From Escherichia coli (lineage in GTDB: Bacteria > Pseudomonadota > Gammaproteobacteria > Enterobacterales > Enterobacteriaceae), in the NCBI RefSeq assembly GCF_003334335.1, contig NZ_QOWQ01000015.1: DNA of 64,000 nt; one strand, written 5' to 3'. Within the stretch, counting starts at the first letter, position 1, and each line of letters begins with the position of its first letter. The translations under genes were made by a program, and so were the position numbers. Shown here piece by piece: positions 20,401 through 35,762 of the stretch. The notes below the pieces were generated by a model. That model made no database searches, was not told the origin of the DNA, and saw only the letters and a program-made list of their open reading frames with translations.

Positions 20401-20715
20401 TTACGGCAGGTAAAACACTTCTTGCAGCTCGCTACTCACCGGGCTGTTATCCGGGTTAGCGGGCATAACATCGGTCATATATTTCCACCAACGTTGGCAA
20501 ACATCAGTGCTGGCAACCGCATTCCAGCGTTCTTCAGATTCAATCTCTACCATGGCAAACAGCAGATTACGCGCTTTGTCGAGATAGATGGCGTAGTTAT
20601 GCGCACCGTGAGATTTCAGCACTGCTTCCAGTTCTGGCCAGATGGGATTATGCCGACGCTGATACTCTTCGTGGGCGTCGGGGTTTACCTGCATGACAAA
20701 GGCTTTGCGGATCAT
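20401..20715 (-). CDS. rhaM: L-rhamnose mutarotase
   Basis: ORF track, 104 aa, [30 protein letters not shown]…. Confidence 0.93.
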
Positions 20716-20724
20716 GTTTGCTCC

Positions 20725-21549
20725 TTACAGCGCCAGCGCACTGGCGAGTGGCGTAACGCCGAAACGCTTGCCGAGCGCTATCAACTCTTCACGGCTGATG
20801 GTCTGTTTCATGCCGCCCATCGAATAAACCTTCACTAATACTTGTGCTGATTTTTCTGCGGTGTCGATTAAACCGAAGGTTTCATCCAGCGTCGGTCCGC
20901 TGCCGAAGACGCCGTGGAAGGGCCACAACACCAGCGAATGTTTTTGCATCTCTTGTGCGGTCGCCTGGCCGATTTCGTCCGTGCCGGGCACCATCCACGG
21001 CAAAATGCCAACGCCATCCGGGAATACCACCAGACACTCGGTGCTGCCTTCCCACAGTTGGCGAGTGAAGACCGCGGTGTCGTTTTCAAGTACATAGGTG
21101 AGGGCGATCAGGTTGGTGGCGTGGCAGTGCATGATCACCCGATCTTTGCCGTTGGTGGCTTTAATGCGCTCGCAGTGGGAAAGGAAGTGAGCCGGAAGTT
21201 CGGAAGTGGGGACGGCTTCGTTGGTTAACCCCCAAAGAATGTGGTAGCCCGCGCCGTCGCTGTCGACTTTTACGATGCCTAAGTTAGCCGCAGGATCAAG
21301 CTGGACGTTACGGAAGAATTTGCCCGAGCCGGTGACAATAAACGGTGTATTTGCCAGTAAAGGCATGGGCTGGCTGAGCGGGATATAGCGCGGTTGTTGG
21401 TGGAAATTGTCGTGATATGGTGCGATATCGGCGTCATCCAGGCGTAGCGTCAGGTTGCCGCCGTTGCGCTCATCCCAGCCTTTCAGCCAGGCGTCGGTGG
21501 TGGCTTTGATCATTCCCTGGACAAACCAGGACTGAGTAATGTTTTGCAT
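20725..21549 (-). CDS. rhaD: Rhamnulose-1-phosphate aldolase (class II)
   Basis: ORF track 20725..21720 is an upstream read-through; true start at internal ATG (plus CAT 21547-21549) giving 274 aa, [18 protein letters not shown]…. Confidence 0.93.
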
Positions 21550-21574
21550 GTTCTGTGTTCCTGTAAATTCGGTG

Positions 21575-21812
21575 TTGTCGGATGCACGACCCGTAGGCCG
21601 GATAAGGCGCTCGCGCCGCATCCGGCAATCAATGCCTGATGCGACGCTGTCGCGTCTTATCAGGCCTACAACTATTGCCGACCTGTAGGCCGGATAAGGC
21701 ACTTGTGCCGCATCCGGCAATCAATGCCTGATGCGACGCTGTCGCGTCTTATCAGGCCTACAACTGTTGCCGACCCGTAGGCCGGATAAGGCGCTCGCGC
21801 CGCATCCGGCAG
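21575..21812. repeat. Tandem REP/BIME array (about 2.5 copies of a roughly 92-bp unit) between rhaD and rhaA
   Basis: Unit ccgtaggccggataaggcgctcgcgccgcatccggcaatcaatgcctgatgcgacgctgtcgcgtcttatcaggcctacaact recurs starting near 21591, 21683 and 21775. Confidence 0.9.
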
Positions 21813-21815
21813 TGT

Positions 21816-24828
<3,013 letters not shown>

Positions 24829-30598: not shown

Positions 30599-30685
30599 TG
30601 TAGGCCTGATAAGACGCTATCAGCGTCGCATCAGGCATCCTGCTCAAATGCCGGATGCGGCGTAAACGCCTTATCCTGCCTGCAA
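30599..30685. repeat. REP pair (BIME) between yiiM and cpxA
   Basis: gtaggcctgataagacgctatcagcgtcgcatcaggca … tgccggatgcggcgtaaacgccttatcctgcctgca. Confidence 0.85.
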
Positions 30686-35661: not shown

Positions 35662-35762
35662 ATGCCTGATGCGCTTCGCTTATCAGGCCTACATGAATTC
35701 TGCAATTTATTGAATTTGCAAACTTTTGTAGGCCGGATAAGGCGTTCGCGCCGCATCCGGCA
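35662..35762. repeat. BIME/RIP-type element (REP – A+T spacer – REP) between pfkA and sbp
   Basis: atgcctgatgcgcttcgcttatcaggcctaca … gtaggccggataaggcgttcgcgccgcatccggca; spacer resembles those at 7331-7365 and 55080-55113. Confidence 0.85.

Follow-up and report, generated by a model that had tools for sequence, protein, structure and literature searches.

Introduction

REP clusters of the kind considered here have been described since the 1980s-90s. In BIME-1 elements, a Y unit is paired with a Z1 unit around an IHF-binding linker and the element is not tandemly amplified, IHF binding being a property of these BIME-1/RIP elements. For BIME-2 elements, gyrase cleavage was found to be over-represented in a subset of them, with a preference for Y REPs, and it was undiminished under transcription inhibition (PMC6379681). 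At the RNA level, when the REP325 array was deleted, expression of the downstream gene went up about 8-10-fold and the level of the upstream mRNA went down, with a Rho dependence that appeared only with the full 12-REP array and none detectable with 2-4 hairpins; moreover, REP-separated tandem gene pairs had higher upstream/downstream expression ratios genome-wide, with a large context dependence (bioRxiv 10.64898/2026.03.23.713779). Furthermore, genes whose stop codon lies <16 nt from a REP were reported to be translated less (Liang et al. 2015, summarised in PMC12306157).

The rhamnose operon of E. coli K-12 carries such a cluster between rhaA and rhaD, which was tabulated as a 401-bp BIMEs2, 'rhaA>-rhaD>' (Sutormin et al. 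2019, PMC6379681, suppl. DS3). In EcoCyc the cluster goes by the name REP299a-i; a 2024 preprint places it inside the rhaBAD operon, within 15 nt of the preceding gene, counts it as one of eight REP regions that resisted exonuclease when the mobilome was prepared, and gives a RAREFAN prediction of it as a RAYT-associated REPIN (bioRxiv 10.1101/2024.07.17.603846). The repeat analysed here lies in a 64,000-nt stretch of E. coli DNA (contig NZ_QOWQ01000015.1), referred to as the window, and is the REP299 locus of E. coli, a BIME-2-type array that occupies the space between rhaA and rhaD in the rhamnose operon and has the structure Y-(Z2-Y)n, n being 2 in this case.

Results

To begin with, one array was detected at positions 21587-21811 by Tandem Repeats Finder (period 92, 2.4 copies, 93% matches, no indels, score 415), while a gap-free repeat search returned two copies that were 95% identical, at 21587-21678 and 21679-21770, plus a partial third copy. 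The degenerate REP consensus pattern matched exactly at 21634-21669 and 21726-21761, with no match in 100 shuffles. The tandem REP repeat of roughly 92 bp claimed by the first-pass annotation was thereby borne out, and the palindromes quoted in it were present. As for its count of about 2.5 copies, each with a REP pair, the repetition stood, whereas the copy number came to 2.4 and the last, partial unit held one palindrome. At megablast stringency, a query that included the unit found matches at nine sites in the median E. coli genome.

The array occupies the 266-bp rhaA-rhaD spacer (21550-21815) and is wholly extragenic, the two flanking genes being co-directional on the minus strand. Upstream in the operon are rhaB (23072-24541, minus strand, NCBIfam equivalog model) and rhaA (L-rhamnose isomerase, minus strand, 21816-23075 with the 5′ end given approximately; NCBIfam TIGR01748, 829 bits, and RefSeq annotation of identical DNA), and downstream are rhaD (rhamnulose-1-phosphate aldolase, minus strand, 20725-21549; NCBIfam NF002963, 479 bits) and then rhaM (20401-20715, minus strand; TIGR02625, 194 bits). 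The match to the rhaD model was full-length, beginning with the ATG at 21549. Since these NCBIfam models name the flanking genes as rhaD and rhaA, the array had been placed correctly in the rhaD-rhaA intergenic region. Open reading frames running over the array were examined for coding potential and set aside as mechanical: one on the minus strand (20725-21720) is a TTG extension of rhaD, and one on the plus strand (21731-22009) runs antisense into rhaA.

Read in mRNA sense, that is, along the minus strand, the rhaA stop codon TAA (21818-21816) is followed by a 5-nt spacer, ACACT (21811-21815), which was found in 14/14 E. coli alleles examined. Next comes the rhaA-proximal Y-type REP (21777-21810), an 'outer' variant, GGCGCGAGCGCC, which reads GCCGGATG...CCGGCCTAC in the mRNA and forms a hairpin of about -21 kcal/mol. 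A 15-nt long linker, gggtcggcaacagtt (21762-21776), lies between the GTAG/CTAC ends of this Y unit and of the first Z2-type REP (21726-21761), which is inverted and forms a hairpin of about -22 kcal/mol. After a 7-nt short linker, attgatt (21719-21725), the second Y-type REP (21685-21718) is an 'inner' variant, GGCACAAGTGCC, with an A-T in place of a G-C pair, and leads through the second 15-nt linker, aggtcggcaatagtt (21670-21684), to the second inverted Z2-type REP (21634-21669), which was located by both the REP pattern and the parsing of units. Another attgatt linker (21627-21633) precedes the rhaD-proximal Y-type REP (21593-21626), again an 'outer' variant. The remaining 43 nt (21550-21592) form the leader of rhaD, with the Shine-Dalgarno sequence AGGAAC (21562-21557) 7 nt before the ATG. 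All these elements are on the minus strand. In the same sense, the three Y units read GCCGGATGCGG...CCGGCCTAC and the two Z2 units GTAGGCCTGATAAG...CATCAGGC, and the top of the stem is GGCGC/GCGCC in the two outer Y units and GGCAC/GTGCC in the inner one.

Thus, the array consists of five units of 34-36 nt, each ending in GTAG/CTAC, with an internal loop in the stem and a folding energy of -20 to -22 kcal/mol, as expected of REPs. Three Y and two Z2 units alternate in orientation, separated by 7-nt and 15-nt linkers, in the layout Y-(Z2-Y)2, and they are inverted, tandemly repeated and variable in number, as in BIME-2 elements. These alternating Y and Z2 REPs uphold the earlier description of a BIME-type array of inverted REPs inside the rhaBAD(-rhaM) transcription unit. 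Moreover, the IHF consensus WATCAANNNNTTR was absent from both strands of the spacer, in agreement with the lack of an IHF-binding linker in BIME-2 elements. The IHF binding mentioned earlier for such arrays is consequently a property that does not apply to this one, given that neither strand carries the consensus.

Over 20 kb, the window and K-12 MG1655 shared 99.9% identity, the exception being 184 bp within the array. The MG1655 spacer has 450 bp and 4.4 copies of the 92-bp unit, equivalent to Y-(Z2-Y)4 with 9 REPs. As the K-12 allele of the same spacer is 184 bp longer, the window allele is mid-sized and the label 'unusually long' given to it earlier does not hold. In K-12, the long linkers alternate between ...caaCagtt and ...caaTagtt (C, T, C, T), while those of the window are C and T; this alternation indicates that the two alleles differ by one two-unit block (184 bp).

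A total of 5,426 complete E. coli genomes were searched with the rhaD and rhaA coding flanks only, taking the gap between the matched pieces as the spacer length. Of those, 5,403 matched, and lengths were read from 118 rows in two evenly spaced listings. The spacer lengths of these 118 sampled genomes formed a series 92 bp apart. Spacers of 82/92 bp (n = 0) appeared in 25 rows (21%), those of 174/176/184 bp (n = 1) in 26 (22%), those of 266/276 bp (n = 2) in 13 (11%) and those of 358/368 bp (n = 3) in five (4%), while 450/460 bp (n = 4) accounted for 31 rows (26%), a class swollen by K-12 laboratory strains. Furthermore, one row had 723 bp (n about 7), another had 436 bp, and 16 (14%) had a 241-bp spacer with a different insert. 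One spacer sequence was read for every length class but that of 436 bp, which confirmed the structure Y-(Z2-Y)n. The variation in copy number between strains, as had been claimed, therefore extends from n = 0 to about 7 in the sampled E. coli genomes.

Among the roughly 30 sampled genomes with flanks at least 99.7% identical to those of the window, n = 4, 3 and 0 were all seen, while n = 2 was found in the window and in the complete genome of strain H2 (NZ_CP010163), which was 100% identical to it over 701 bp spanning the whole array. Since all these values occur on near-identical flanks, array length changes faster than the flanks gain substitutions. The 92-bp steps in n fit unequal recombination or replication slippage between units. 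In addition, 12 distinct sequences of the Y stem had one varying pair, which was A-U in seven, G-C in two, G-U in one and unpaired in two.

Other variants of the spacer were also observed. The rhaD leader also comes in a second haplotype with 10 extra nt (53 instead of 43, ...catccggcaacaggcacggacgtccaattaacaggaac...; L004, L007, L010, L012 and L013), which was found with every copy number and gives rise to a parallel '+10' series of 92, 184, 276, 368 and 460 bp. In the 176-bp allele of E. coli YJ1 (L006:401-576), the rhaD-proximal REP is a hybrid with Y-like GCCGGATG/ATCCGGC ends and the Z2 central part GCGACGCTGTCGCGTC, which suggests conversion between neighbouring units. In the 241-bp allele (e.g. 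E. coli OkiPb01708, NZ_AP042652, L008:401-641), (Z2-Y)n is swapped for an unrelated element of about 125 bp with 35-nt imperfect terminal inverted repeats, CCCTCACCC.../...GGGTGAGGG; this element had no Rfam match and no copy within the window.

Regarding other genera, 80 loci, one per species, were found with RhaD, and both rhaA and rhaD could be placed in 76 of them, in which the spacer measured between 15 and 466 bp. One or two E. coli-like REPs were present in Citrobacter, Kluyvera and Salmonella enterica subsp. arizonae, and many genera among these 76 loci had no E. coli-like REPs in the spacer. Superficieibacter electus (L046:2077-2481) presented 8.2 tandem copies of a 49-bp unit with its own REP-like palindrome, GCAGGCCCGGTAAGCGCAGCGCCACCGGGC..., an independent array at the same site. 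Moreover, G-rich 'CCCTCTCCC/GGGAGAGGG' palindromes were observed in the spacers of Pseudocitrobacter faecalis and an uncultured enterobacterium (L017:2328-2503 and L079:2094-2503), which resemble the 241-bp E. coli allele. Escherichia was represented in this cross-species set, which included no E. coli, E. albertii or E. fergusonii, by one contig of the cryptic Escherichia sp. MOD1-EC7003, starting inside or next to the array, with at least 10.7 units upstream of rhaD (L015:1-1078). The first 63 nt of this contig do not belong to rhaA, which means that either the array is interrupted there or the assembly is broken there. The rhaA-rhaD spacer is thus a place where small palindromic repeats recurrently land or expand, its conserved content being limited to E. 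coli, where the first Y REP lies 5 nt past the rhaA stop in 14/14 alleles. Furthermore, the use of rhamnose does not call for any given array length, since about 21% of the sampled E. coli have a single REP, 14% of them carry a different insert and REPs are missing from the spacer in many related genera.

At the DNA level, the BIME-2 between rhaA and rhaD in K-12 contained four Topo-Seq cleavage sites with ciprofloxacin (Cfx), two with rifampicin plus ciprofloxacin (Rif+Cfx), one with microcin B17 and none with oxolinic acid (PMC6379681, DS3). The expected number of Cfx sites in the K-12 array, computed from the DS3 totals (4635 sites in 4.52 Mb; PMC6379681), was about 0.4. The gyrase binding mentioned earlier for such arrays thus found documented cleavage behind it (PMC6379681, suppl. 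DS3), at the 9-REP allele of K-12 and not at the 5-REP allele of the window. Because this in vivo cleavage falls inside the K-12 BIME-2 and occurs also with transcription blocked, the array is regarded as a site of gyrase binding and cleavage on DNA, and we infer that the window allele, with its three Y REPs, would be a gyrase site as well. Of the roles considered, that of gyrase is the only one with direct data at the rhaA-rhaD locus, coming from the K-12 copy. As a side observation, gyrase cleavage sites (3, 3, 0 and 0; PMC6379681, DS3) are also tabulated for a BIME-2 in the araD-araA spacer of the arabinose operon, which is a second sugar-catabolic operon with such an insert.

At the RNA level, a 291-nt region of the minus strand was predicted to fold at -143.1 kcal/mol, with a z of -7.2 vs. 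shuffles. Single REPs folded at -20 to -22 kcal/mol on either strand, and a Y unit together with its neighbouring Z2 could alternatively form one long hairpin of -53.8 kcal/mol. In the predicted fold, the rhaD leader was mostly unpaired and its ribosome-binding site largely so. Neither a sigma-70-like promoter nor a terminator made of a hairpin plus a U-tract (0 sites) was found on either strand within 21300-22100, which implies that rhaD-rhaM rely on read-through of a 266-nt untranslated structured segment. The setting is that of a REP325-like stabiliser or attenuator, with co-directional genes, no promoter between them and stable hairpins on the transcribed strand. In mRNA sense, the spacer had a C/G ratio of 0.95, with no C>G bias and no C-rich stretch, for which reason it is not a typical Rho loading site, composition here being uninformative rather than excluding.

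The Rfam model RF02564 (naRNA4) matched the plus strand at 21596-21666 and 21688-21758 with 77.0 and 76.6 bits, above its gathering score of 59.5, while on the transcribed minus strand the scores, 56.5 and 53.2 bits, were below 59.5. This strand bias arises because the rha array is inverted with respect to transcription relative to REP325, with another period and other linkers. A naRNA4 gene was therefore rejected as an annotation, the matches above threshold being on the non-transcribed strand only and the model amounting to one Y-linker-Z2 unit.

Elsewhere in the window, REPs were seen at about 7297-7394, 30604-30679, 35664-35761 and 55045-55141. Among these, a single Z2-Y BIME-2 unit (30603-30680, minus strand, 78.6 bits for RF02564) is located between the convergent genes yiiM and cpxA, as judged by K-12 coordinates. 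The other three, at 35664-35761, 55045-55141 and 7297-7394, are REP pairs with a short palindrome partner of about 25 nt and are probably BIME-1-type elements; linker matches to Rfam ES036/CssrF appeared at 35685-35726 (minus strand) and 55079-55120 (plus strand). Further Rfam matches above threshold were SECIS_3 at 12459-12517 (fdoG region), the ClpQY promoter element at 49378-49435 and the L31 ribosomal-protein leader at 54047-54099.

Discussion

Overall, the explanation that best accounts for these results, and which we consider likely, is that of a BIME-2 array serving as a gyrase site on DNA and, through its hairpins, favouring rhaBA over rhaD-rhaM in the mRNA. On DNA, the array is most likely a mobile-element-derived repeat acting as a gyrase site. 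On RNA, the array is a segment of the rhaBAD(-rhaM) transcript, and its hairpins would therefore act on that molecule. Five hairpins of about -20 kcal/mol (or the long Y/Z2 hairpins of about -54 kcal/mol) would block 3′-to-5′ exonucleases, and the same hairpins would partly attenuate read-through. Expression of rhaB-rhaA would be raised in this way relative to rhaD-rhaM, as measured for REP325 in yjdMN, and the effect would probably grow with n. By analogy with that array, a moderate, n-dependent bias toward rhaBA over rhaD-rhaM is probable.

Against this stands the possibility, to which we give limited credence, that the array is a neutral or selfish REPIN/BIME remnant drifting in a permissive spacer, with no meaningful effect on operon or chromosome. 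That n takes values between 0 and at least 10, none of them preferred, speaks for drift, and so does the acceptance of unrelated inserts at the site (the 241-bp E. coli allele and the 49-bp-period Superficieibacter array), together with its emptiness in many genera. The Y stem had one covarying base pair, not above shuffled controls (83/500); with a single varying pair, 83/500 shuffles and copies that are not independent, covariation of the stem was discarded as evidence of selection. However, gyrase cleavage at the K-12 copy was measured and not inferred, five stable mRNA hairpins can hardly be expected to have no effect at all, in view of the expression bias seen across the genome between genes upstream and downstream of REPs, and the first Y REP and its 5-nt distance to the rhaA stop are kept in 14/14 E. 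coli alleles. This same short distance, present in the window and in those 14/14 alleles and below the 16 nt mentioned above, underlies a tentative alternative that is compatible with the best explanation: a translation brake, by which the REP 5 nt past the rhaA stop would stall terminating ribosomes, leading to tmRNA action and less RhaA. REP299 is listed as within the limit (bioRxiv 10.1101/2024.07.17.603846), whereas the <16-nt rule was established on a few genes, and a brake would account for the first REP only and not for the array or its variation in copy number.

Three other readings are far less probable. A full terminator, with or without an internal promoter, splitting rhaBA from rhaD-rhaM would agree with strong hairpins between two genes and with the coincidence of terminators with some REPs; nevertheless, it is extremely unlikely, as the search of 21300-22100 returned neither a terminator nor a sigma-70-like promoter on either strand, rhamnose catabolism requires rhaD expression and the locus was described as within the rhaBAD operon (bioRxiv 10.1101/2024.07.17.603846). 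We hold just as improbable a nucleoid-associated small RNA gene of the naRNA4 type, acting with HU to condense the chromosome. In its favour is the pair of plus-strand RF02564 sites above the gathering score, but since the model is in effect one Y-linker-Z2 unit, any BIME-2 matches it; moreover, the matching strand is antisense to the rha operon, the open reading frames assigned by NCBIfam/RefSeq between 15384 and 24541 are all on the minus strand, no promoter-like site lies in 21300-22100, and a 2026 re-examination failed to reproduce nucleoid condensation by REP325/naRNA4 (bioRxiv 10.64898/2026.03.23.713779). Finally, short-read assemblies can collapse tandem 92-bp repeats and the close relatives of the window mostly have n = 4, so its n = 2 might be a collapsed longer array; such an artefact is very unlikely, since the complete genome of strain H2 (NZ_CP010163) is identical over 701 bp across the whole array and n = 2 occurs in about 11% of the sampled complete genomes.

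A more speculative extension of the gyrase-and-hairpin reading, which we think rather unlikely, is that the number of Z2-Y units works as a fast-mutating 'dial', setting the share of transcription and mRNA survival that rhaD-rhaM receive in comparison with rhaBA and perhaps the recruitment of gyrase. If so, strains would tune the ratios of rhamnose-pathway enzymes with no changes in promoter or proteins, and the unrelated arrays found in the same spacer in other genera would represent a convergent use of the site. What is added here is the recognition of rhaA-rhaD as a length-variable repeat inside a catabolic operon, changing in exact 92-bp steps and with several lengths on near-identical flanks. 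The rha promoter and operon are in wide use for expression systems. The locus is a convenient natural system in which to ask whether the copy number of REPs quantitatively determines expression ratios within an operon and the recruitment of gyrase, and the variation in spacer length could also serve as a strain-typing marker. The scale of this variation and the repeated occupation of the spacer by different repeats make the locus mildly notable.

Compared to known systems, the rha array shares with BIME-1/RIP elements the inverted orientation of the REP palindromes, from which it differs in having Z2 units, no IHF consensus and an amplified structure. With respect to REPIN/RAYT (TnpA-REP) systems, its inverted REP pairs, conserved GTAG and mismatch-containing stem are the features recognised by the E. 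coli TnpA-REP, whereas no RAYT gene is apparent in or next to the array, and homologous recombination or slippage accounts for the 92-bp steps just as well as RAYT action would. The RAYT gene of K-12 is presumably far from the rha region. The BIME-2 elements of sucB-sucC and araD-araA are likewise located between co-directional genes of one operon and have multiple gyrase cleavage sites (PMC6379681, DS3), although they are other loci, of 166 and 247 bp, likened to this one by the table listing.

A closer parallel is REP325 (naRNA1-6, yjdM-yjdN of K-12), the best-studied stabiliser of upstream mRNA and a partial, partly Rho-dependent attenuator, which is also an alternating Y/Z2 tandem array between co-directional operon genes and matches the same Rfam model. 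However, REP325 has a 100-bp period, 13-nt and 17-nt linkers and 12 REPs, in contrast to the 92 bp and the 7-nt and 15-nt linkers of the rha array, and the orientation relative to transcription is opposite, with Y reading GTAGG...GGC in the yjdMN mRNA and GCC...CCTAC in the rha mRNA. The closest system is REP299a-i of K-12 itself, which has the locus, the flanking genes, the Y/Z2 units and the 7-nt and 15-nt linkers in common with the window, on flanks that are 99.9% identical, and which differs in having 9 REPs (n = 4) in a 450-bp spacer instead of 5 REPs (n = 2) in 266 bp. The feature of the window is, in short, an ordinary and already known one, a shorter allele of a BIME-2 cluster that had been named and described before.
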